Below, one piece after another: positions 1-39,582 of a DNA stretch of 39,582 bases (within the stretch, counting starts at the first letter, position 1; each line of letters starts with the position of its first letter). The notes under the pieces are model-generated. The model saw only the letters and a list, made by a program, of their open reading frames with translations. It was not told where the DNA came from and searched no databases. Where the stretch lies: assembly GCA_021432655.1 (NCBI GenBank), contig MU271610.1, positions 1 to 39,582 of the forward strand. Direction: 5' to 3'. A program made the translations under genes and the position numbers. The DNA comes from Atractiella rhizophila. Its lineage: Eukaryota.

Positions 1-3000
1 TCTGGCGAAAGAGGCGGAGGAACAGAGGGTTGAAGCGGTTCGTCTCCACTGATTGATCTGGATGTGGCTCTCATCTCTTTTAGGAGCGACTTGCTGAAGA
101 GGCCAGGAAAGCGGAAGAAGAAGCTCGATTGGCAGCTGAACAGGCTGAACAGGAGCGTCTTGAAGCGGAAAAGCTGGAAGCAGAACGCCTTGCAAAGGAA
201 GAGGCTGAACGCGCTGCAGAAGAAGCTCGAAAAGCAGAAGAAGAACGCGTTGCTGAAGAGGCTCGACTGGCTGCGGAGAAGGCGGAACAAGAACGTCTGG
301 AAGCTGAAAGGCTAGCTAGGGAAGCGGCTGAGCAGGCAGAGCAGGAGCGACTGGAAGCCGTCTGTCTCTTTCTCTCCCGCGCATACCCATTCTCATTGCG
401 CCACTCAGGAGCGTGTGGCAAAGGAAGAAGCCGAGCATCTCGAAACCGAAAGGATCGCTGAAGAAGCAAGATTGGCCAGTGAAAAGGCAGAACAGGAACG
501 CATTGAAGCTGAGCGTCTAGCCAAGGAGGCGGCTGAGAAAGCTGAGCAAGAGCGCCTCGAAGCTGTGCGCCCCCCAATATCTCCGTTGCTACTCTTACAC
601 GGTGGTTTAGGAACGTCGGGCGAAAGAGGAAGCCGATCGCCTTGAAGCTGAACGGATTGCTGAAGAAGCGCGACTAGCCGCTGAGAAGGCAGAGCAAGAA
701 CGTGTAGAAGCGGAAAGGCTGGCTGAGGAAGCTCGATTGGCTGCGGAGAAAGCTGAGCAGGAGCGCGTTGAAGCAGTCCATCTCTTTCATCTACCCATAT
801 CTTATTCTCACTTAGTTATATAGGAACGTCTGGCGAAAGAGGAGGCCGATCGCCTTGAAGCTGAACGGATTGCTGAAGAAGCACGCCTAGCCGCTGAGAA
901 GGCAGAGCAAGAACGCCTTGAAGCTGAACGACTTGCAAAGGAAGCGGCTGAGAAAGCCGAGCAAGACCGTCTTGAAGCTGTGTGTCTACTCTATTGTGCC
1001 AATTGCCGCTCAGACGATTGTTCAGGAGCGTTTGGCAAAGGAAGAAGCTGACCGTCTTGAGGCTGAAAGGATTGCTGAAGAAGCTCGACTAGCCGCTGAG
1101 AACGCGGAGGAAGAACGCCTTGAAGCTGAACGACTTGCAAAGGAGGCAGCTGAGAAAGCCGAACAAGAGCGTCTTGAAGCCGTCCGTTGCTTCCCCACGC
1201 CGTATTGGTTCTCACAGTTATTTAGGAGCGTTTGGCGAAAGAGGAAGCCGACCGCCTTGAAGCTGAAAGGATCGCTGAAGAAGCTCGATTAGCCGCAGAG
1301 AAGGCAGAGCAAGAACGCATTGAAGCTGAACGTCTAGCCAAGGAGGCGGCTGAGAAAGCTGAGCAAGAGCGTCTTGAAGCCGTCCGCCGTTTCCTCTCCT
1401 AGCCTTATGGTTCTCATTGATGCTTCAGGAACGCCTGGCAAAGGAGGAAGCCGACCGCCTTGAAGCTGAAAGGATTGCTGAAGAAGCTCGACAAGCCGCT
1501 GAGAAGGCGGAGAAAGAACGTCTTGAAGCAGAACGTCTAGCCAAGGAGGCGGCGGAGAAAGCCGAGCAGGAGCGCCTTGAAGCTGCATGCCTCTTCCATT
1601 TTATCACTTACTACTCTCACCTTGTCGTATAGGAACGTTTGGCGAAAGAGGAAGCTGAACGCCTGGAAGCGGAACGAATCGCTGAAGAGGCGAGACTAGC
1701 TGCTGAGAAAGCGGAGCATGAACGTCTCGAAGCCGAAAGACTGGCGGAGGAAGCCCGAGTAGCAGCGGAAAAAGCTGAGCAGGAGCGCCTCGAAGCTGTT
1801 CGTATATGCACTCTCGTACTTTCCGACTTAAGTCTCTTTCTAGGAACGGTTGGCCAAGGAAGAGGCGGATAGAGCTGAAGCCGCGAGACTCGAAGAGGAA
1901 GCTCGGTTGGCTGCAGAGAAAGCTGAACAAGACCGTCTCGAAGCAGTCCGTTCAGTCCGCTCTCGCAGACATCCCTTCTCATATATTTTTAGGAACGTTT
2001 GGCGAAAGAGGAAGCCGATCGCCTTGAGGCTGAACGAGTTGCTGAGGAAGCTCGCCTAGCCGCTGAGAAGGCGGAACAAGAACGTCTCGAAGCGGAGAGG
2101 TTAGCTGAGGAAGCTCGAGTAGCCGAGGAGAAAGCTGAGCAGGAGCGTCTTGAAGCTGTGGGCTCTTCCGTTTTCTCGTTTACTACTCTCACGTTATTGT
2201 ATAGGAACGTTTGGCGAAAGAGGAGGCTGACCGCCTTGAAGCTGAAAGGATTGCAGAAGAAGCTAGATTGGCCGCTGAGAAGGCAGAGCAAGAGCGTCTC
2301 GAAGCTGAAAAGCTCGCCAAAGAGGCGGCTGAAAAAGCCGAGCAAGAGCGTCTTGAAGCCGTCCGCCCGCTTCCTCTCCTAGCCTTCTGATTCTCATTGA
2401 TGCTTCAGGAACGCCTAGCAAAGGAGGAAGCCGACCGCCTTGAAGCTGAAAGGATTGCTGAAGAGGCTCGATTGGCGGCCGAGAAGGCGGAGCAAGAGCG
2501 TATCGAAGCTGTATGCTCCTTCCATCCCGTTTACTATTCTAACGATGTTGTATAGGAGCGTTTGGCGAAAGAGGAGGCCGACCGCCTTGAAGCTGAAAGG
2601 ATTGCAGAAGAAGCTAGATTGGCCGCTGAGAAGGCAGAGCAAGAACGTCTCGAAGCTGAAAAGCTCGCCAAAGAGGCGGCTGAAAAAGCCGAGCAAGAGC
2701 GTCTTGAAGCCGTCCGCCCGCTTCCTCTCCTAGCCATCTGATTCTCATTGATGCTTCAGGAACGCCTAGCAAAGGAAGAAGCCGACCGCCTTGAAGCTGA
2801 AAGGGTTGCTGAAGAGGCTCGATTGGCGGCCGAGAAGGCGGAGCAAGAGCGCATTGAAGCTGTATGCTCCTTCCATCACCCCGTCTACTACTGTAACGTT
2901 GTTTTGTATAGGAGCGTTTAGCGAAAGAGGAGGCCGACCGCGTTGAAGCAGAACGGATTGCTGAAGAAGCGCGCCTAGCAGCTGAGAAGGCTGAACAAGA

Positions 3001-4081
3001 GCGTCTTGAAGCGGTTTGTCCCTGTTCTCCAGTCACTCTTTGTCTCATTTTCTGCAGGAGCGCCTTGCTAAGGAAGAAGCTGACAAGGCTGAAGCTGCTC
3101 GTCTGGCTGCGGAAAAGGCTGAACAGGATCGTCTCGAAGCTGTCTGTCTCTTTACGTTTACCCGTGCCCATGCTTAATTATGCCATGTAGGAACGTTTGG
3201 CGAAGGAAGAAGCCGACCGTCTCGAAGCTGAGCGCATTGCTGAACAATTGGCAGCTGAAAAAGCAGAGCAAGAACGACTGGCTGAAGAGGCACGATTAGC
3301 GGAAGAGCAGAGAATTGAGGCGGTTGGTGTCTCCCCAATATAACTTCCAGTGTAATGGTCGATATTAGGAACGTGTGGCAAAAGAAGAAGCGGACCGCCT
3401 TGCAGAGCAGGAGAGAAAGGCGGAGGAGGAGCGACTCGAAGCCGTTTGTTTGCATCAGCTGAATAGTTTATCGCATTGAACGCTTTGTATAGGAACGACT
3501 TGCTGAAGAGGCTCGATTGGCGGAGGAGCATAAACTTGAGACTGTCCGTCTCTAATGCTCCATCCACTTACGGCAGCTGACTATACAGTTTAGGAGCGGC
3601 TCGCTGAAGAAGCTAGGAAAGCTGAGGAAACTCGGGTAGCTGCTGAGAAAGCAGAGGAAGAGCTGGCCGAAGCTCAGAGGAAGCTCGATGAGGAAGAGAA
3701 CCTGGCCAAAGAACAGGCGGATCAAGTAGGCTGATGCTCTCTACTCATTTCCCTTATCTGACCGATTTTTAACAGAAGGCGGATGTGCAAGACACGACTG
3801 TAAAGGGCAAGGTACTAGTGCTAACTCCTTAGAAAGCGCCGGCTCATCCGTTTGTGGATTAGGACAAGGAGGAACCTGTCGATGAACCTGCATCTGCCGA
3901 CCCTGTTAAATCCTCAGTCGAAACAGAAGAGACAGGATCTGTGCCACCTTCCCCTCTCGAAGCGAGCCAAGCCGGCCTCGAACCGGAGGTAGAAGACGAG
4001 GAGGAGGCAGGAGCAGACCCGTCATCCCCCACCAGCCAGAAGAAGAAGAAGAAGAAGAAGAAGAAAGGGAAGAACAACTAA
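1..4081 (+). CDS. 5'-truncated, very long E/A/R/K-rich alpha-helical repeat protein (about 1010 aa within window) with an acidic Pro-rich linker and C-terminal poly-Lys
   Basis: 22 introns of 44-51 nt, all phase 0: 38-83, 360-408, 565-610, 776-823, 980-1025, 1182-1225, 1382-1428, 1585-1632 (GC-AG), 1798-1843, 1946-1992, 2158-2204, 2361-2408, 2511-2555, 2712-2759, 2862-2911, 3014-3057, 3142-3190, 3323-3368, 3444-3492, 3544-3593, 3726-3775, 3812-3862. Splicing gives one open frame of [34 protein letters not shown] repeats ending [22 protein letters not shown] at 4079-4081. Confidence 0.9.
2205..2911 (+). repeat. Higher-order tandem duplication (~351-bp unit: 156-nt exon, intron, 102-nt exon, intron)
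   Basis: 2205-2555 and 2556-2911 are nearly identical, including introns 2361-2408 vs 2712-2759. Intron 1382-1428 is a more diverged member of the same family. Confidence 0.9.
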
Positions 4082-7408: not shown

Positions 7409-8574
7409 TCAGTCCAGTAAAGTTCTTCCTCTACCCTCAGCCCAAAACTCATCCTTCAGCATATCCTCATGCACGACCGCAATCCGGAACGACTTCTTCT
7501 CCTTCCTCTTGCGCTCCTTTCTATGCTTCTCCTTTTCCTCGCTCGTGTGTTGATTTTCATTCTCAGCTTTTGGCGCAATCGGAGGAGCGACTGCCTCTTC
7601 GACCTCCTCCCAAACGAGCAAACTACCCTTCTTGAACATCTCTGGCTCCTCGTTGTAGTTCATGCCAAATCGTGAGAAGAGGATTTCATGCTTCTGTGAA
7701 CTGACAGTACCCTGATCCCCCCATTTAGTCGACTCTGTTAGCCAGCAACGAGAACGAGGGCGGAAGAGCGGAGGAGAGACACGAACGCTCAATTCTGCGT
7801 GGGCTTCTTTGGCCGTCATCTCTCCTCGTTGGACCAGTGCCCAAAATACAGTGTTATAGAGATTGTTGATGTGCGCTAGAGGACGAAAGGAGGATGAAGG
7901 CCATTCCGAGGGGAAAAAAGGGACGGATGAAGCCAAGGAGGAACTCACTGTCTACTTGGCGCCATTTCAGGTAATCAATGACGATAGCTTTTAAAGGATA
8001 CTGCACTATTCTGCTGTATGGATCAGAAGAGAGATATCGAGAGGCATAGAACGGACCGTCCATCGAAGGCTGGAATCTCATTTGAACCGTCTAATAATGG
8101 AATGGTTGGAAAGAATCGTGGCCAGTGCAAGCAGTATGCGGAGGTAAATATCGAGACGCAGGTTGAGAGGATCTTGCTTGTGAATTATCGTGAGAAATAT
8201 GGGTAAGTCGCGCAAGAGGTAAAATCTCACCTCTCTCGACGATTGTACAAGGAGCAGTGAGGCGAGATCACAAAACTGTTCCTCATTATTGATACGATTT
8301 CGATCTCTGTAGCGAAGAAGGAGAGAACGCACCTGTATTCGTCACTCTCACCAAAAGCACACATGATGTTCTCCTTCCCCAGCTGCCTCATCAACGTCTC
8401 AGCTGCGCTATTCATGAGTTTGAGAGCACGTTCATCGTTTGGCTTTGTGAAACCTTTGGCAGTGGAGAACTTCGAGAATCCCTTGCCATCGAGCCTGAGG
8501 ACAAGATATGTGGAGGGTAAGAGTGAATCGGGCAGCTCGAAGGTCTTCACGTAGGCAAAACGTGATTGAGACAT
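7409..8574 (-). CDS. THG1: tRNA(His) guanylyltransferase, complete, 6 exons
   Basis: Spliced product has [101 protein letters not shown] and FKKGS, all Thg1 hallmarks, with canonical GT-AG introns. Confidence 0.97.
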
Positions 8575-8702
8575 GTTGGATCTGGATCCAGCAAAAGAAA
8601 GCTTAACATTGTTTGTGCCCTTGTCGGTGTTCACAATCGATAACAAGTATAACCAGACGTCCAACAAAACTTCTGAACGTCCAATACCTCACGATACCTA
8701 CG
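8575..8702. promoter_or_regulatory. Compact bidirectional promoter, copy 1 (THG1 / truncated peptidase)
   Basis: 128 bp between divergent ATGs at 8574 (-) and 8703 (+). Function is inferred from geometry. Confidence 0.7.
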
Positions 8703-9023
8703 ATGTCCCCTTTGCTCTTTCTAGCCCTCAGTGCCTCCGCTTACTCAGCCTCACTCCAGTGGAGCGTCTCAGATGACAGACACAGCGAACAGCTCGTCTT
8801 CCAACCTCAATTTGAACAACCTGAGACCCCGACAGCGCCTGGATTTCATAATGCATTCGAGACATTGGATGTTCTCCTTCCCCAGCTGCCTCATCAACGT
8901 CTCAGCTGCGCTATTCATGAGTTTGAGAGCACGTTCATCGTTTGGCTTTGTGAAACCTTTGGCAGTGGAGAACTTCGAGAATCCCTTGCCATCGAGCCTG
9001 AGGACAAGATATGTGGAGGGTAA
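8703..9023 (+). pseudogene. Truncated aminopeptidase 5' copy fused to antisense THG1 sequence
   Basis: [16 protein letters not shown]...HNAFETL crosses the junction at 8868 into the reverse strand of THG1 exon 1 and stops at 9023. Confidence 0.8.
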
Positions 9024-9077
9024 GAGTGAATCGGGCAGCTCGAAGGTCTTCACGTAGGCAAAACGTGATTGAGACAT
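8769..9077 (-). pseudogene. THG1: Truncated THG1 5' copy (~70 codons) fused to antisense peptidase sequence
   Basis: MSQSRF...QLGKENI is identical to THG1, followed by unrelated QCLECIMKS... after the junction. It lacks the SDE motif and the C-terminal half. Confidence 0.85.
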
Positions 9078-9206
9078 GTTGGATCTGGATCCAGCAAAAG
9101 AAAGCTTAACATTGTTTGGTGCCCTTGTCGGCGTTTACTATCGATAACAAGTATAACCAGACGTCCAACAAAACTTCTGAACGTCCAATACCTCACGATA
9201 CCTACG
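9078..9206. promoter_or_regulatory. Bidirectional promoter, copy 2 (truncated THG1 / intact peptidase)
   Basis: Second copy of 8575-8702, lying between ATGs at 9077 (-) and 9207 (+). Confidence 0.7.
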
Positions 9207-11400
9207 ATGTCCCCTTTGCTCTTTCTAGCCCTCAGTGCCTCCGCTTACTCAGCCTCACTCCAGTGGAGCGTCTCAGATGACAGACACAGCGAACAGCTCG
9301 TCTTCCAACCTCAATTTGAACAACCTGAGACCCCAACAGCGCCTGGATTTCATAATGCATTCGAGACATTGGGCTTCCCTCCATTGGAAGAGTTCGGTCT
9401 CGAAGATACCATGATGGAGATGCTTAGGGAGTTTCTTCAGGTCGAGACCGAAGAAAGGTGCGTATCAGGCTTATTATTCAATTCAAATTGTTCCACTGGA
9501 ACTGCTTGTTCGACTTTTCGGTTTACAAACACGTCTACAGTGTAGCTGTACCATTTCTGAAGAGTTATTAGCTTATTTGCTCTGAAATAAACTGGATGGC
9601 TTGACCTGCATTGCTCTGGCGGTTATTACATCACCTGTCCTGTCCCTCTGTATCACAATGGGTACTACAGCCATGATGAGGCTCGCCGCCCCCGGGATGC
9701 AGTTAACATCAATGACTTACCTTCGATGTCGAGTTTGACGTCTATGTCTTGTTCGAAAATTTGTGTGCTTTGAGTTGTAACGAAATGCTCCCGCTCCAAT
9801 TCGGTTGACTGGACTTCCTAACACACAATGGCAATAGATACGTCCAACTCTCTCCAGACGCTAAGGATATCCACCGCATCACGGAAGGAGAAAAGACTCT
9901 CCTTCGTCTACAGGGGAAACCTTTCATTGACGTCACTGACTCCATCTCGTTTGACTATTCGAGCCCTTTTGTACAACAAAGTCCAGAAGTAGAGGAGGAT
10001 CCTTTCTCTAGTACGCTACACCGCCCCTTTCCCGTCCCTACCAGGATAAAGACGAATGGAAATTGAGTGTGTATTAGTTCCGGACCTGAAATACTCTCGT
10101 GAGGATCTCAAGGACGCGTTTGCAAATACCTGGAACGAAGACAAGATGGAAGAGTTCTTGACCGAATATTCTGGATTCACGACCCGGTAAGCCACTCTTC
10201 CGTCTTGTCCTGGTGAAATTGAAATCGATTATGTTGGCAAAAGGTACTATCGCTCTCGTTATGGTGCTGAAGCTTCCGATTGGTTAGGCGCTCAGATCCT
10301 CGCTCTCGGTTTGCCTCTTCTGCTCTCTTCGCCTAATACATTATTGACACAATCGAATCCTGACAGTTAACTCTTACGACCTCTCTCCTGAGAAAGCTCC
10401 AGTCCTGAAAGCCTTCCCCCACTCCTGGGGTCAGAACTCTTGGATCCTGACCTTCCCCTCTGCGTCTCCCTCAGCTCGGAAAGTCATTACCGGTGCGCAT
10501 CTGGACAGCGCCAACATGCTCCCTTTCCTCCCTGCTCCTGGGTTCGTTTTCTTTCACATCGTTCCATCCCTTTCCTTGGAGAGTACCAACGGATGAGAGA
10601 ATGTTTTGGTCCAGAGCGGACGACGACGGCAGCGGTACCACTTCTAACCTCGGCGCACTTGCCGCCGTCCTCCAGCTGGTAAAGGATGGATGGGAATCAG
10701 ACGAGCAGATCGAGTTTCAGTGGTACTCTGCTGAAGAAGGTAAGAGTCCCCCTGCGTCGTTCTGTCGATACCGAACAAGAGCTTATTGGCTGCTTGGCTC
10801 TTGAAGCTGGTTTACTTGGAAGTCAGGGGATCGCCAAGGCGTATAAGGCGGATAACGTGAAGGTGAAAGGGATGCTACAGGTTCTTGAACATTCACCTCC
10901 TGCAGTTTCGGGCCATTATTGACAAAGCTTGTCCAGATGGATATGACAGCCTGGTTGAAGCAGGGGAAACCAGAGACGTTCGGTATCTTTGCAGACTACG
11001 TCAACCCCAACGCGACTGCATTCCTCGAAAAATTGGTGACCGAGCATCGTGCGTTCCCATCCATCCACTGTTCCGTCTTGAGAACACTGATGATGTCGCT
11101 CGACTTCAGTTGACATCCCTTTCGCTGAGACCCTCTGCCATTACGGATGTAGCGATCACGCTTCCTTCTTCAACGCAGGCTACCCCAGCGCAGGGAGCAC
11201 AGAGAGCATCTTTCAGGACTTCTCTCCTTAGTTCGTCCTCTTTCTTTTTGAGATCGTCGAGTATGGTTAACTCTTTCGCTAGCGCACATACTGTGAGAGA
11301 TACCATCAATCACGAGGAGTTCAGCTTCTCGCACATGAGAAAGTTCTCCATCATCGCGACGGCTTGGATGGTCGAGTTGGGAGGGATGAAGAAGAACTAA
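9207..11400 (+). CDS. Secreted M28 family zinc leucine aminopeptidase (LAP1-like), multi-exon
   Basis: Signal peptide plus motifs [59 protein letters not shown] and HTVRDT...FSFSHM. Stop at 11400. First intron 9458-9837. Confidence 0.93.
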
Positions 11401-16671: not shown

Positions 16672-19600
16672 TCAATCGTACCTGTTGCCTCCATGATGAC
16701 CGCCTGCGCGAAGATAAGCTGACGTTATCAATGCAAGAGGGACAAACCGTGATGATGACCTCTCCTCCCTTCGTCCTCCTCATCGTCGTCGCCGTGGCGC
16801 CGGCCGCCTGGTCCAAAAATTAATCCTCGGTCTACAACAGTGGCTTGGACGAACCTTGATGCCCTCCCCTCCTTCCTTCCTCGTCATCATCCCGAATGTT
16901 CATCCTCTCGACACCGTAGCTATCATCCCTTCCTCCTCCCCTGCCTCCAAATCCTCCCTCCTCCCTCGCACCTTGCCATCCACCGCCTCCTCCGTGCCTC
17001 TCTTCCCTTCCTCCACTACCGTAACCACCACCACTTCCATAGCCTCCTCCATCATTTTGGTCGCTCCTCTCGAACGAGCTCCCGTAAGTGTTTTGGAAGC
17101 TGTCTTCGTTTCGGTTGGCAGAATAGCTCTCTTCATCCCGCTCCCCGTAGGGTCTGGATCCACCACCTCCATAACCACCACCGCTACCACCGTAACCGCC
17201 TGACCGAGAGTCTCCTCCTCTATTATAACCCCCACTGAAGGTATCTTCCCCTGATCCCCCTCCTCCTCCACGACCATAAGAGGTCTGTTCCGCTTCCTCT
17301 CCTAATCCACCATGATGACGACCGCCACCACCGTGATGACCGTGTCCACCCTGTTGATTGTCCCTTCCGGTAGATGAACCATACTGATTACCGCCGCCGT
17401 ACGAGTCCTCGTTCCTGGAAGACCCATACTCGTTGCGGGAGGAGCCATATTCGTTGTCGCCCCTTCTTCCCGACTCGTTGTTATCCCTTCGAGATCCATG
17501 CTCGTTGCGGGAAGACCCAAACTCATTGCGAGAAGATCCGTACTCGTTGTTATCGTCCCTTCGAGACCCATATTCGTTTCGCGAAGAACCATATTCGCCA
17601 CCGCTTCTTCCTCCCGATCCGTATTCATTGTCCCCTCCGCCGTAAGCACCAGCGGTTCTACCACCAAAAGATTCTTCCGTCCTGCCTTCGCCGTATGATG
17701 ATTCATTCCTTCCGGATTGTCTTCCGTATGAAGATTCCTCCCTTCCAGACTGACCATAGGACTGGCCGTATGACGGTTCTGTTCTCCCAGCCTGCCCATA
17801 CGATTGGCCGTACGACGGTTCAGTTCTTCCAGACTGGCCATAAGAAGATTCGTTTCTGCCAGATTGGCCGCCATACGATGATTCATGCTGGCCGTATGAG
17901 GATTCATGCCTTCCAGACTGTCCACCATGTCCCTGACCGTGACTGCCTGATTGACCACCATATCCTTGGCTCTGAATTCGCGCTCCGCCTCCGCCCCTTC
18001 CACCTTGAGGATGAGGTGCCTTCCTTCCTACACATGCCCCGTGAACCTTCGTATTCTCGTCGGCACCAATACGTTTATTGTCGCCTTCCCTCACGCTTTC
18101 CTGTTCCCACCGAATGGCAAATTAGGTCAAGCATAGTAGGTCAATGGGATGAGAACCTTAGAGAGCCTTTGGATAACAGTGTTCTGGTCCTCCCTCGACA
18201 AACCTTCGAACCACCTCCTCATCTCATCTGCCATTTTCTCCTGAATACCGGAACGACCATTTGCAATGTACGGGTGATGGAACGTCTCAAGGATCTGTTA
18301 CCTCTCTCTTCAATATTCTGGCCCAAAGACCAGGAAATAACAAAATACCTCGTCAACGGCTTGGTTCGCATCCATTCTCCCACTCCAAGCGCTGACGACC
18401 CTCGTAACTGCCTCCCTCACCACGACTTTAGCAATTCGTCCCTGTCATTCAAGCATCAGTCTTCCCTTCTTAAGAACGTTGGTAAGCGTACAGCAGGATC
18501 GTTTAGGATATTGTCGAAATGATCCTTTGATATCATTGAATGTGAGGGGTCTGAAGCTTGAGGATTGTCGAACACTTCGTACTGGTCGTCTTGGTCAATT
18601 ACCTCCCGGCTGCCTTTGCTAAGTCCATCCGAGACCGTGGATAGTAATGTCTAGTGGTAACTGTCAACTTGGTTTGCCCGTCTGCTTTTGGAGCAAAGCT
18701 CCGCTGGGAATGAGCCTACCTGAATGTAAGGTTGAATAGTTGTATAGACGAAGACGTTCACAGCTTCCGTGAGCTCTTCAACCAAATTCTGAAGACCAGG
18801 GATTTTCTCCACGGTTGCTTCAATGTCTCGCATAACACCGTCTCTCCACTTCAAAGCTGAGTAAACCATCAGCCTAAGACCTGTCTCTTAGTTGGAAAGG
18901 AAGAGACGCGAACCGTCAGTCAGGGCACGCTGGACTTCTTCGCTAGCGACATCATCAGGATTGAAATCAACGGCCTTCTTCTGCATTTCTTCAGCTTGGG
19001 ATACTTTCTCGTCTCCACCACCTCCGCCGATTTTGGAAAAGATGTCTGCGAGAAAAGGGTAATAGGACACACATTCAATCGGGCTAATAGGAAGCTTACT
19101 CTTGATAACCTCAAGCTGCCCTTCCTTTCCTTTCGAGTTCTGCATCTTTTTGTCCAATTCTGCAATCGAGGATTCCGAAAGCTTGTCTTGTGCTTCACCC
19201 ATAACACTGAAGACTGCCCGCATCTATCAGTAATTTCCCTGATGATAATAAAAGGTCGCACTGAAATCGGCGCTCCCAAAGGTGCCGGTTACCAACGGAG
19301 AGACTTCGCCGTTATTGGTGCGAATAGTAACATTATCGCCAACATGTGTGAATACGGAGTCGTGTCCCATCTTCCTCAGGGTGAGTTCGCTGGATTGTGC
19401 CGATTGCGTCAGCTTCACGTTGTAGCGAAGAGGTATAAAATTGACATACCACCAATTACTGTGTGCCAACAAGTCCTCCAATGTATGCAGCGCTCCGCCT
19501 AACAACCTGTAAGCTTCGAAGAGCTCCGGAGAGTCTCTGCCTCCGCTTCGCTGAGCAAGTTCTATATTCTTTCTCAGAAGCCGCGTGCAAATGAAGCAGA

Positions 19601-35650: not shown

Positions 35651-36220
35651 TTTCATAATTAGGATATCAAAAAGTCGCCCCAATGGGAAGGAAGGAGAGA
35701 ATATCAAAGTGGGAAAAGAGAGTCACAGGTGGCCTGGAAATAAGGCTCGATTTTTATCGACGTGATGGAGTTGGGTCCGGAAATTAGAGGCATGGGTTTA
35801 TGAGTTGTGGGTGGTGGCATCATTTAGCAGTAATGAATGACAAACATGGACCCTATTCAGCCGCCCTGCTTCTGTAGGACCCTGTGATGTGATCTTGGCA
35901 GGTCGTGAAGGTTTTGTTGACATCAATGAAGTTTAACCTTGCATTTTGAATAAATAATCGCATTTCGTTCGGGAGGTATTTTGGACTACTGTACACCAGC
36001 GAGCCAATTCTTGGACTTCCGTGGTTGTGCTAGCCCCCGAGCCAGACTCCACTAGATATTTGGAAAACGATGCTTTGCAAAAATCATGTGCGTACGCTAC
36101 ATTGGTAATATGAATTACTGCATCATTACAAATTTAAGAAAGCAAACCCATCCAAAATCCAGCAGCGCTGGAGTCTGCAACCGGAACGGTTCGAAACCCG
36201 ATCCGACCATTTCTGAACGC

Positions 36221-36493
36221 AAATATTTCAACCACAACAGCTCATACACCGTTGGAGTAAGCGCGAATCCGGATAGTCTTAGCAAAAGATTGGTTTGCGC
36301 GCTTTTTTGGTGAGTTTTCGTTGCATGTAACCATCTTTGCAGGTCTATATTTCGCTACATACGAGCTATTGAGCTCCATGGAGCCCATGTACGACCTCTT
36401 TCTTCTATTCTCGCATACCCACCGAGCATGACAACCGTCCACCGCACCCTACTAGCGTCTTACCAACCCCTCTTCTCGGTCGGTAGCCTCTCA
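36221..36493 (-). repeat. 273-bp inverted repeat, left arm
   Basis: Reverse complement of 37181-37453 with no indel and no mismatch seen. Both arms encode the identical 66-aa ORF in the track. Confidence 0.97.
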
Positions 36494-37180
36494 AACTGTG
36501 CGACGAAGATAAGAATGGGCTCTCGTGCTTTTATAAGGTGATATTAGCATATGTGGTGTGGCATAGGTGGCATAAGCCATCAATGAGTCATGCTGGTGAC
36601 TCAACTTGTACATGGAGTTTTTAAGCTGGCAGCAGTTTCTACATTGCAATATGTCCCATGTGTAGCTACCTGAATAAATACCTTCTGTAATCAAGATTTC
36701 ACACTTGTAAGCTGACCTGCAATGTGCGAACGCATCCGACGTGAACAGAATGGGAACCTAGAAAAACTCAATACGCGCCGATTTCTCTCCGAGAGGCAGG
36801 GATACGGAGGTGAAGCCTTGGTTGGTGGATCTGGCGAGTTGGTGATATTCTTTCGCAAGGAGCATGGCAGCCTTCGTATTTCGTTCTAAGAGTCTCGTAG
36901 ACTCTGTCGAACGGTTGGAGGTGTCGTCCAAGTGAAGGAGAGACAAATTGCGCTGGAAAGGCGGAGGAACGACCGTTCCTAATCGTGCTTGCAGGAGCTG
37001 GCGATCGACATGGATTTTGTTTGTAAGCATCACTAGACCTGTTTTAGATCGTTAGCGACCTTTCAGAGGTAGACAGAGAAGAAAGGGAGGGAGGTGAAAG
37101 GATGGTACTAGAGAGGAGCGATGGATTGGGCGCAAGAGCTCTGAAAACAGTCACAGAGAATCTGTGGGCCCTTTCTTATC

Positions 37181-37453
37181 TGAGAGGCTACCGACCGAGA
37201 AGAGGGGTTGGTAAGACGCTAGTAGGGTGCGGTGGACGGTTGTCATGCTCGGTGGGTATGCGAGAATAGAAGAAAGAGGTCGTACATGGGCTCCATGGAG
37301 CTCAATAGCTCGTATGTAGCGAAATATAGACCTGCAAAGATGGTTACATGCAACGAAAACTCACCAAAAAAGCGCGCAAACCAATCTTTTGCTAAGACTA
37401 TCCGGATTCGCGCTTACTCCAACGGTGTATGAGCTGTTGTGGTTGAAATATTT
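37181..37453 (+). repeat. 273-bp inverted repeat, right arm; possible terminal repeat of the downstream element
   Basis: TGAGAGGCTACC...GGTTGAAATATTT. 687-bp spacer to the left arm; ends 226 bp before the Gag-like ATG. Confidence 0.97.
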
Positions 37454-37679
37454 TGTGGCAGAAAAGACTGAAGTGAGTCATGAGCGAAAGATCTTTTCCG
37501 CCCTTCCAACAAATTGTAGAATGCGAAGTGAGGTCATTGCTTGTTTTCACAACCACTTCGCCATTCCCTCTCAGCAGATCAGCTCACTCAAGTGAGTTTT
37601 CACGCGTCCTAAAAGCGCAAAAACTTCATTCGGCACCCCCCAACAGCTCTCCTTCTCTAGATTCACTCAGTTCAAGATA

Positions 37680-39582
37680 ATGGCCGATATGGCAGGAAAC
37701 GATGGCGGGAGTGGAGGGCAAGGCGGAATGACGTCCTCTGAGTCTCTGGAGAACTTGTTTGCAGGAGGCATGTCTGGCGCTTCGGGAAACAATTGGGGAG
37801 AGAGAGGATTGGCAAGTGGTCTGAGAGAAGGAGAAGGAAGAGAAGGGATAGGAAGCCAGGCAACGGAGGGTGGTGTTGTATCGGGTTCGCACGCGTCCGG
37901 ACCCGGTGGCGTGGAATCAGGAGCAGGAAATGCGGAAAACGCGTCGGATCGAGTTTTCTTCGACTCCCTACAACGCCTGGCTAAGGAAGGGCGACTTCAA
38001 GGCATCCTGAACGCGTCGGGCTGGGTGAATACTTCAGAATCGGCATCGCAGGTAGCCACCACCAAGTTCCTCGATTCTATCGGCAATCTTGTCCAAAATC
38101 TCACCAGCTCAGTTACGAAGGAGAAAGAAAAGGAGGGAGGAATGTCTGTGATAGATGGGACAGCAAGAGTTTCAGGCGCGTGTCCTCCAGTGAGTGTTTC
38201 ATTTGTTGTCGGGACAATGATGCTTGGAGTTTTGGGCGTCCGCCAGTTAGCTGGCGTTGCGCGTGCAGTACTGGTTAGCCGGGCTGCAGAAGCTGTTCTG
38301 TCAGCCTGCGTTGCGTTTTGCGTTAGAGCATTTAGCTCAGTTAAGAAATATACAACTGTGTAGGCAGTTGTAAAGCGTCGCGTCACTGGTTAGCCAGTTC
38401 TTGCAGCGGTCTCGGCAGCTGCATTGCGTTGCAGTACTGGTTGGCCAGCTTTTCTTGCGCAGTTGTGTTGACAACTGCATTCTTTGCGTTACTGGTTAGC
38501 CAGTTAGTGCAGCTGTGTTGGCAGCCGCCATGCGTTGCGTTACCCGTTAGCAGGTTAATAGAGCTGTGTTGACAGCTGCCTGCGTTGCGTTACAGGTAGC
38601 GGGATTGTGTTGGGAGACTGCATTATGTCCCAGTTTCTTGTGTTAATACAGTTGTGTTTGTAGACTGTCATGGTGTGCTGCGTTTCACAGGGGATTGTGA
38701 TGGAGAATGGAGCTGATGAAATGTGCGGTGAAACAGTGGCTGCATGTCAAGTTGTATGAACATGCGAAGAAGAATCCGCACGCGTTCCTCGAAATGGCCG
38801 CCTATTCGCCCGGATTCAACAAAACGCGTACCCCCAACATGTCAGACAAAGTCGCAATCGATCTCAACCTCGGCACCACAGTTTACGCCACCAACTCGGT
38901 GGAACATATCCTGAAGAACTTCAAAGGGAAGGACAAGCTGCTCTCCTTCGATGAATGGTACAGGGCGGCGAAGGTCCTGTTGAGAATTTTTCGAGAGGCA
39001 GAGGACAAGCACGAAGGAGCGGCGGCGTGTTGGGAAAGATACATTGATTTGGTGGAGGGTATCTACTACGGCGAGGGGAGAGGATCGGCAGAGAACTGGC
39101 CGGTCATCCGCGACGCAGATATTCGCCACAGGAATCAACACGCAGTTTCAGGCAAGGATCTGGGGAACGGATCGAGAGCGTGGCCCGATATCAGCAACTC
39201 GGCTGTGTTCGAGTCGCTGTATCAGTCGGTGGTACGAGAATCGCTGCATTCGATTGTCTCAAGACCAACCGCGACGCCTTTTCCTTCACCCTCGAATCGC
39301 GCACCTTCTCAGAGAAACGGCCAGCCCTTTCGGAGCGGCTCCACGTCTCCCTACGAGAGACGCCAATCGGCAGCGGGTAGCGTTGCCTTTAGCTGTTGCA
39401 TCCAGTGTGGAAAGGATAAAGCGGTCTGCGGTAGTAGGACATGTAGGTCGATTGTAGTGTGCAGCGGTTATGTGGCTGAGCTCAAGAATAGGGCAGTGGT
39501 GCAAGGAGTCAACCACAGTTGCAGGAAAGCCCATCAAGAAGCAGTCCCTCCCTCGTTCCGCTCTCCTCGACCCCCAAGGACG
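37680..39582 (+). CDS. Spliced Gag-like protein (exon 37680-38189, intron 38190-38736, exon 38737 to window end)
   Basis: Donor CCA|GTGAGT, branch CTGAT at ~38713, acceptor AACAG|TGG, in-frame phase-0 join (GACPP|WLHVKLYE). Exon 2 is stop-free for 282 codons (not in the ORF track) with LSFDEWYRA, CWERYIDLV, WPVIRDADIRHR, QPFRSG and a Cys cluster CCIQCG..C....C. Confidence 0.7.
38245..38620 (+). repeat. Degenerate minisatellite, ~50-57-bp unit, about 7 copies
   Basis: Core ACTGGTTAGCC(AGTT) or variants at 38270, ~38325, 38385, 38436, 38491, 38542 and 38592, each followed by GCAGCTGTGTTG...GCGTTGCGTT-like sequence. Confidence 0.85.

Follow-up and report, generated by a model that had tools for sequence, protein, structure and literature searches.

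Retroelements are expected to lose introns, and the known exceptions, namely Penelope-like elements and some tyrosine recombinase (YR) elements, are unexplained. Fungal Ngaro elements are already known, and introns are reportedly known from some YR elements as well, spliceosomal ones being mentioned by Goodwin and Poulter in 2004. No paper on a spliced gag, or on an end structure such as the one described here, was found for fungal Ngaro elements in our literature search, outside of which lay Goodwin and Poulter 2004, their later reviews, and the Repbase reports. For the Ty1/Copia elements EVD (PMC5580714) and BARE (PMC3735527), excerpts of the respective reports describe splicing that yields a Gag mRNA distinct from the RNA being copied, and BARE is described there to keep separate RNA pools. 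For DIRS-1, parts of the corresponding report describe a trans-acting RT, the formation of unspliced cDNA from constructs with a marker intron near the 5' end, and also marker introns that were lost on transposition (PMC7192593). To this knowledge, the locus studied here adds RNA-level support for splicing, a second intron that switches the reading frame, an intron common to three families, ends fitting neither Ngaro nor DIRS, and a pol frame without a start codon.

Spliced gag gene at the end of the window

The window, i.e., the whole analyzed stretch of 39,582 nucleotides (contig MU271610.1 of the Atractiella rhizophila assembly GCA_021432655.1), stops where the contig stops. Its positions 37454–39582 on the plus strand represent the 5' third of a gag-pol(RT/RNase H)-YR retrotransposon, named family A in this study, which is present in several copies in this basidiomycete genome; the remainder lies beyond the contig end and was taken from other copies (C35, C310, C76, and C548). 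Its insertion has split the right arm of an inverted-repeat element not related to it (36210–37453, without strand assignment), whose arms of about 280 bp lie 687 nt apart and which has relatives on several contigs. Elsewhere in the window, a gene with many tandem exon-plus-intron duplications (1–3700; period of approximately 200 nt) encodes Glu/Ala/Arg-rich repeats, a near-perfect tandem duplication with a period of 503–504 nt is located at 8365–9372, and short repeats of 21–54 nt (17399–17924) reside within a minus-strand frame of 429 codons (16832–18121).

The gag gene starts with the ATG at 37680. Its plus-strand exon 1 (37680–38189; 510 nt, 170 codons) encodes a Gly/Ser-rich and then helical segment and is left in phase 0 at intron 1 (38190–38736; 547 nt), which features a GTGAGT donor at 38190, a branch-like CTGAT at 38713, and a CAG acceptor ending at 38736. 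In a contig of the sequencing run X1, exactly these 547 nt with their GT..AG ends were skipped; the junction 38189/38737, predicted in a preliminary description of the locus, is in use. X1 is a single public run, of a type not on record and available as strandless contigs, and possibly underlies the deposited gene models, so that run and models are not independent of each other. Five of these models (P0001, P0003, P0081, P0082, and P0083) use the intron-1 junction, and a sixth (P0002, copy C76) is modeled without it.

Among the six copies spanning intron 1, the intron length ranges between 497 and 553 nt, and donor and acceptor were kept in each of them. Comparing three copies with C35, 15 pairwise indel events were counted in the 547-nt intron and none in 1461 nt of gag exons, a tally in which shared indels appear more than once and from which the decayed copy C64 was left out; C64 itself carries seven indels in intron 1 and four in exons 1 and 2. 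The pN/pS values amounted to 0.14–0.29 for exon 1 (all five pairs) and to 0.06–0.27 for exon 2, i.e., purifying selection acts on both exons. The 547-nt intron 1 is a real spliceosomal intron. Its loss was not encountered among the 17 listed matches of the intron-1-spliced model P0001, none of which crosses the exon 1–exon 2 junction uninterrupted. Within the intron, a degenerate tandem array of 51-nt units with short hairpin motifs (38356–38588, plus strand; 4.5 copies, 72% match) was noticed, the folding z-score of the intron RNA is -5.4, and five hairpin motifs are located at 38271–38554. The in-frame ATG at 38707, considered as a start for exon 2 alone, was rejected: it is intronic, it is altered in C64, and the exons are joined in X1.

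Exon 2 (38737–39442, plus strand; 235 codons plus 1 nt) encodes an NPHA motif, a helical core, and the first Cys pair. The preliminary description had given the ATG, the 170-codon exon, the 547-nt intron, and a subsequent exon of 282 codons, all of which were reproduced as open frames and coordinates. The 282-codon frame is open to the window end; however, it is not a single exon, since an intron at 39443–39491 ends exon 2 at 39442, and its last 47 codons are intron or wrong frame. This intron 2 (49 nt, plus strand, GT..AG, with a branch-like CTGAG near 39476) was joined out in X1 and measures 49 nt in six of six copies. Its removal shifts the frame and leads to a Gag of 486 aa ending in a CCCH finger and a CCHC knuckle, both encoded past the window by the exon 3 that starts at 39492 (39492–39582 in the window, plus strand), where the start-less pol frame opens as well. 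In spliced exon 3, PF00642 (CCCH) was matched with an E-value of 6.7e-4, just under the curated cut-off, and the knuckle reads C-x2-C-x3-H-x4-C; a gag-like first ORF with a zinc knuckle, as expected for a YR retrotransposon, is present in family A.

Three copies show 39 substitutions after intron 2, of which 34 are silent in the spliced frame, three in the unspliced frame, and two in the pol frame (34 of 52 silent in the spliced frame when C64 is added). This substitution pattern shows that selection acts on the 486-aa Gag obtained after both splices. Together, the pattern and the frame shift at intron 2 indicate that unspliced RNA encodes neither Gag nor Pol. An X1 contig retaining intron 2 carries the variants of C64, in which the branch A is altered, and this copy represents a natural control for intron 2 splicing. 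In the deposited gene models, which lack intron 2, these gags are entered as host genes and end in an incorrect C-terminus. A third intron of 63 nt directly follows the YR stop, was skipped in X1, and is kept in four of four copies; all six copies spanning introns 1 and 2 retain both. The introns display the features of the U2 type, i.e., GT..AG ends, a branch site, and removal from RNA (one run, contigs only).

Pfam searches with gag exons 1 and 2 yielded nothing, and the Gag homologues detected were exclusively proteins of A. rhizophila (3 of 788 candidates, 2 in a library of 1.84 billion sequences, and 4 of 4272 with an alignment). The only leads from the Atlas were unnamed, mostly Basidiomycota clusters at 0.90–0.92. 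The structure model of exon 2 was poor (mean pLDDT 48.7), its best hits being unrelated helical bundles (Z of up to 6.2), and the missing viral or capsid match at E ≤ 0.001 is, given this model, not evidence against a capsid fold.

Complete element, its termini, and related families

The copies C35, C310, C76, and C548 reach one common 3' end, giving a unit of 6062 bp (about 6.06 kb) with the order gag, pol(RT/RNase H), a 276-nt spacer, and YR. The 5' end was found in at least nine genome matches with unrelated flanks; copy counts are lower bounds, given a fragmented assembly and searches that score the best candidates only. Between C35 and the window copy, 9 of 2129 nt differ, so the spread was recent; every long copy compared (four of four) carries at least one stop or frameshift in some gene, and current activity is only a possibility. 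In copy C64, internal inversions and deletions were observed (L022 3030–3450), and X1 contigs show the same rearrangements.

A profile built from the pol of families A, B, C, D, and F matched solved RT/RNase H chains (best E-value 8.6e-6) and the Ty3 Gag-Pol (3.9e-4), i.e., the RT/RNase H characteristic of YR retrotransposons (order DIRS) was recognized by the five-family profile. Family A pol alone had zero matches in Pfam and in the PDB sequence search; parts of a survey of these elements warn that their RTs escape such searches (PMC3783388). The RT contains a WVDD motif, and RT/RNase H is constrained (pN/pS 0.07–0.13). A charged insertion of about 65 residues between the first RT motifs (L021 3262–3470) is missing in the sister families. 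In place of an integrase, family A encodes a tyrosine recombinase that matches PF00589 (E-value 7.5e-6; 26.3 bits vs. a cut-off of 27.1), is constrained to a similar degree (pN/pS 0.09–0.10), and has 75 homologues among 3719 candidates, the best of them (34–40% identity) in Agaricomycetes. In the YR tree, which was rooted at the midpoint, contains no named Ngaro or DIRS reference, and from which two family F rows were dropped as too short, family A lies on a long branch within a mostly basidiomycete group of 32 rows that also contains family B. Downstream of RNase H, no methyltransferase was detected: pol stops about 35 codons past the last RNase H motif, and no Pfam family was found there, as is typical of Ngaro.

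The pol frame, which shares the phase of donor 1, begins immediately behind the acceptor-2 TAG, and its first ATG is located only well inside the RT. Because of this phase, a transcript that skips exon 2 would have exon 1 joined in frame to pol; the donor 1–acceptor 2 joint was absent among the 11 joints listed from X1 contigs. Past the gag stop, 10 of 20 substitutions are silent in the pol frame. The constraint switches from the gag to the pol frame at this stop, which is also compatible with a +1 frameshift, and the openness of the pol frame across exon 3 corresponds to the chance expectation (P 0.43). In family C, a conserved pol motif begins upstream of the gag stop, which excludes frameshifting at the stop codon as a general mechanism. 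Pol would be a fusion made from the same transcript, possibly by joining donor 1 to acceptor 2, a route to which we assign somewhat less than an even chance, or, slightly less probably, through +1 frameshifting at the gag stop or ahead of it, or else by another route. The UCC-UGA at the family A gag stop has what we take to be an antizyme-like look. The YR has an ATG of its own in families A, B, C, and D and would be translated from it, so that a scheme of one donor with three acceptors is unnecessary for the YR here. Across the 437 gag codons of family F (L060, minus strand), no stop interrupts the +1 (pol) frame, an openness exceeding the expectation from synonymous recoding (P 0.002).

The 5' terminus of family A is sharp (TGTGG, 37454–37458, plus strand) and shows no target-site duplication, and an empty-site contig in X1, which skips 6062 nt, shows no duplication either; dispersed copies without target-site duplication are a property of the order DIRS. 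The features at this end all lie on the plus strand. Nucleotides 4–14 (37457–37467) pair with nucleotides 39–49 (37492–37502) in a terminal hairpin (37457–37502), in which 10 of 11 positions are paired and the mismatch is retained across family A copies. A 10-nt segment (nt 52–61; 37505–37514) is complementary to the last 10 nt of the element at all ten positions, a value equaled by none of 3000 shuffles, and an 11-nt segment (37579–37589) is the complement of sequence slightly inward of the 3' end, forming the inner stem of a panhandle; its counterpart in family C is longer and differs in sequence. End pairing at nt 36–54 also occurs in families B, C, and D. Without gaps, it reaches 9/10 in C (P 0.002) and in B (P 0.003), with letters differing from those of A, and is non-significant in D (7/10, P 0.44), where the stem is bulged. 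Apart from the kept mismatches, the 5' complementary segment resembles a DIRS ICR relocated to the 5' end. As a true ICR template, it was dismissed, since the mismatch persists and an ICR is, according to parts of the DIRS reports, an exact template (PMC3266345, PMC7192593); the persistence of stem mismatches in A, C, and D indicates that the stems are structural.

Two elements of about 460 bp ("minis") at different loci retain approximately 175 nt from the left and 240 nt from the right terminus, connected by the same novel linker of about 50 bp. Intron 1 is absent from them, i.e., its repeats are not needed for mobilization, and the idea of these repeats as a packaging signal was discarded. 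A motif TGGGGT(G/A)(A)GC follows the YR in families A–E (L021 6409–6418, L049 8725–8735, L048 about 8770, and L053 about 8680) and is also retained by the minis; in family B, it starts repeat B. The motif represents a candidate priming or processing site. Rfam searches with four loci revealed no ribozyme or known RNA (six matches, all far under the gathering score). Self-comparison of family A showed only the intron-1 array and no split direct repeats (A1..B1-A2-B2), which the same type of test recovered in family B. Likewise, no inverted terminal repeats of the DIRS-1 type were found beyond the 10- and 11-nt complementary segments, and no exact ICR near the 3' end, the segment in question being located at the 5' end with its left half mismatched. 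Family A functions like Ngaro but lacks the split repeats that define it and is, therefore, not classed as a member.

Regarding the preliminary description as a whole, its assignment to a multicopy YR retroelement was borne out by several contigs matching from 37454 on and by RT/RNase H and YR downstream of gag in the copies that pass the contig end. The retention of the intron in all copies spanning it agrees as well; the split or inverted repeats it had named for inspection are absent, and it had overlooked intron 2 and the zinc fingers, along with the missing start codon of pol and the atypical ends.

A YR search of the genome gave 33 matches; 19 of the divergent loci were taken, and C880 in addition, resulting in families B–F with 31–37% YR identity to family A where the match is long. 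In the YR tree, families B, C, and E group together (100/100), and D joins them at 91/91. The exon 2 protein of family A aligns with the gags of families B, C, and D at 18–25%. In families A, B, and C, the first gag intron has a phase-0 donor and an acceptor exactly 12 codons before [NH]PHA; its lengths (547, about 484, and about 307 nt, respectively) differ, and the intron sequences are unrelated. The intron calls in B and C were made from sequence only, and the shared position points to an intron 1 older than the divergence of the three families. Family D gag has no intron at this site and intron-like breaks elsewhere, and family F gag is unbroken. The split direct repeats of family B have no equivalent in C and D. 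Several further observations concern these relatives. Tandem repeats, hairpin-like in B and unrelated in sequence to those of A, also occur in families B and D within the first intron or intron-like break of gag (L049 2890–3210; L055 3341–3531). Within the YR of family D, a gap of about 50 nt with a frame change (L053 7808–7859), at a position shared by L052, L053, and L056, is probably an intron. Furthermore, a GTAGGT donor follows the first zinc knuckle of family D (L055 5268–5325), with the remaining fingers in another frame; this intron resembles intron 2 but lies about 14 codons away. A family C copy (L057) interrupts a repeat that occurs without the insertion in L064, again with no target duplication.

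Proposed separation of translated and copied RNA

Family A is, on balance, probably a Ngaro-related YR retrotransposon that separates translation from replication. We infer that splicing divides mRNA from genomic RNA and favor this over the other readings. Proteins would come from spliced RNAs, and the template would, with a similar and only fair degree of confidence, be a small unspliced fraction of full-length sense RNA, which these proteins would copy in trans. Signals acting in cis would lie in the first ~175 and the last ~240 nt, and pairing of the two ends would bring them together for closure and for integration by the YR without target duplication. The two minis with the same linker count for action in trans. 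Several points count against this explanation: no unspliced full-length RNA, cDNA, or circle turned up, the stems, mismatched in A, C, and D, are not templates from which the ends could be rebuilt, and the loss of marker introns from DIRS-1 implies that total retention is not the default. Past the pol stop, the depth of X1 contigs declines, and parts of the flank have zero depth; contigs can neither rank the parts of the element nor show its ends.

Other readings have to be considered against the same evidence. The preliminary description had proposed two products from one start, and intron retention would then make a second functional protein of 227 aa with a membrane tail. Such a frame indeed reads 57 codons into intron 1 (38190–38363, plus strand, with the stop ending at 38363) and stays open in four of six copies, and the pN/pS values of the hydrophobic tail (0.42–0.85) are nominally below 1, with p = 0.027 for one pair. 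However, four of five pairs are not significantly below 1, the tail is frameshifted in C76 and C64, its length varies (57, 60, or 82 residues), and the read-through sequences of families B and C are unrelated in sequence and length. The tail is not conserved as a protein, the 227-aa product is under no selection, and a functional role for it is very improbable. The domestication of a host gag gene that gained introns, suggested previously as an alternative, would agree with the five deposited host gene models using the intron-1 junction; it is refuted by the copy structure, i.e., by near-identical copies and at least nine 5' ends in unrelated surroundings, by the linkage to pol and YR, and by the minis and the empty site, and its probability is practically nil. 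Movement at the DNA level, by Crypton-like excision or by YR copy-out with the RT as helper or passenger, would account for the retention of all introns, for the blunt insertion, and for the lack of SDRs, ITRs, or an exact ICR from which ends could be rebuilt from RNA. On the other hand, RT and RNase H are constrained as strongly as the YR, the Gag retains nucleic-acid-binding fingers, and Cryptons are described, in parts of the source, as lacking an RT and having terminal direct repeats of 4–6 bp (PMC3212892), which are absent here. With an RT that is present and constrained, and with different element ends, the Crypton-like alternative of the preliminary description does not hold, and DNA-level movement in general appears improbable.

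Closer to the favored explanation is the possibility that an antisense full-length RNA from the right end serves as template, on which the introns would be invisible to the spliceosome. The retention of all introns, including the one after the YR (four of four copies), fits this assumption, as does the end-joining segment, which on the coding strand lies at a distance of 39–61 nt from the 5' end, a mirror image of DIRS, whose ICR lies near the 3' end (excerpts of PMC3266345); moreover, DIRS-1's right LTR makes a 4-kb antisense RNA (parts of PMC3950715). Family B, with ordinary A1..B1-A2-B2 repeats, has the same intron 1, so that retention is independent of mirrored ends, and DIRS-1 itself transposes via sense RNA (parts of PMC7192593); we regard an antisense template as unlikely. 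A somewhat broader version, in which Gag and Pol come only from spliced RNA, the template for the genome is either the opposite strand or an RNA shielded from the spliceosome, and the ends are closed by a 5' hairpin and a panhandle in place of SDRs, ITRs, or an ICR template, is a little less unlikely, though still doubtful. If true, such a lineage would represent a third end-replication plan for the order DIRS and would explain the indefinite inheritance of introns by a retroelement.

Comparison with known retrotransposons

Compared to the fungal Ngaro groups 1–4, as presented in parts of the study by Muszewska et al. 2013 (PMC3783388), family A has the same gag-pol-YR order, RT/RNase H together with a YR, overlapping gag and pol frames, no methyltransferase, and a basidiomycete host. 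Furthermore, its YR is nearest to YRs of Agaricomycetes, and its sister family B combines true split direct repeats with the same intron 1. In contrast to Ngaro as described in these parts, family A lacks split direct repeats and features three spliced introns, a gag requiring two splices, and a start-less pol. With DIRS-1-like elements, as far as described in excerpts of PMC7192593 and PMC3266345, it shares an internal segment complementary to both ends and the absence of target duplication, and the trans-acting RT of DIRS-1 (PMC7192593) corresponds to the one proposed here. Unlike these elements, it has no inverted terminal repeats of 66–316 bp (PMC3266345) and no methyltransferase, and its complementary segment, about 23 nt long and located at the 5' end, is an inexact copy.

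The Ty1/Copia elements EVD and BARE use splicing in a comparable manner; however, their unspliced RNA still encodes Gag-Pol in one frame according to the passages cited above (PMC5580714, PMC3735527), whereas the unspliced RNA of family A encodes no selected protein, and they possess LTRs and a DDE integrase in place of a YR. In Penelope-like elements, introns survive retrotransposition for unknown reasons, as stated in parts of PMC8557442, but these elements have another RT class, a GIY-YIG endonuclease, and no gag (PMC8557442). The minis of family A, composed of about 175, 50, and 240 bp, resemble the layout of SIRE of VIPER, for which sections of PMC6681497 give 185 bp of the 5' end, a linker of its own of about 30 bp, and 220 bp of the 3' end; VIPER differs in its split direct repeats, its gag-YR-RT order, and its kinetoplastid host (PMC6681497).

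In family A, introns are spliced, are required for the selected Gag, and are retained in every spanning copy, and the question of which RNA is copied becomes testable in one fungus. Compared with the standard pictures of DIRS and Ngaro ends, the absence of split and inverted terminal repeats suggests that these pictures miss some fungal elements.
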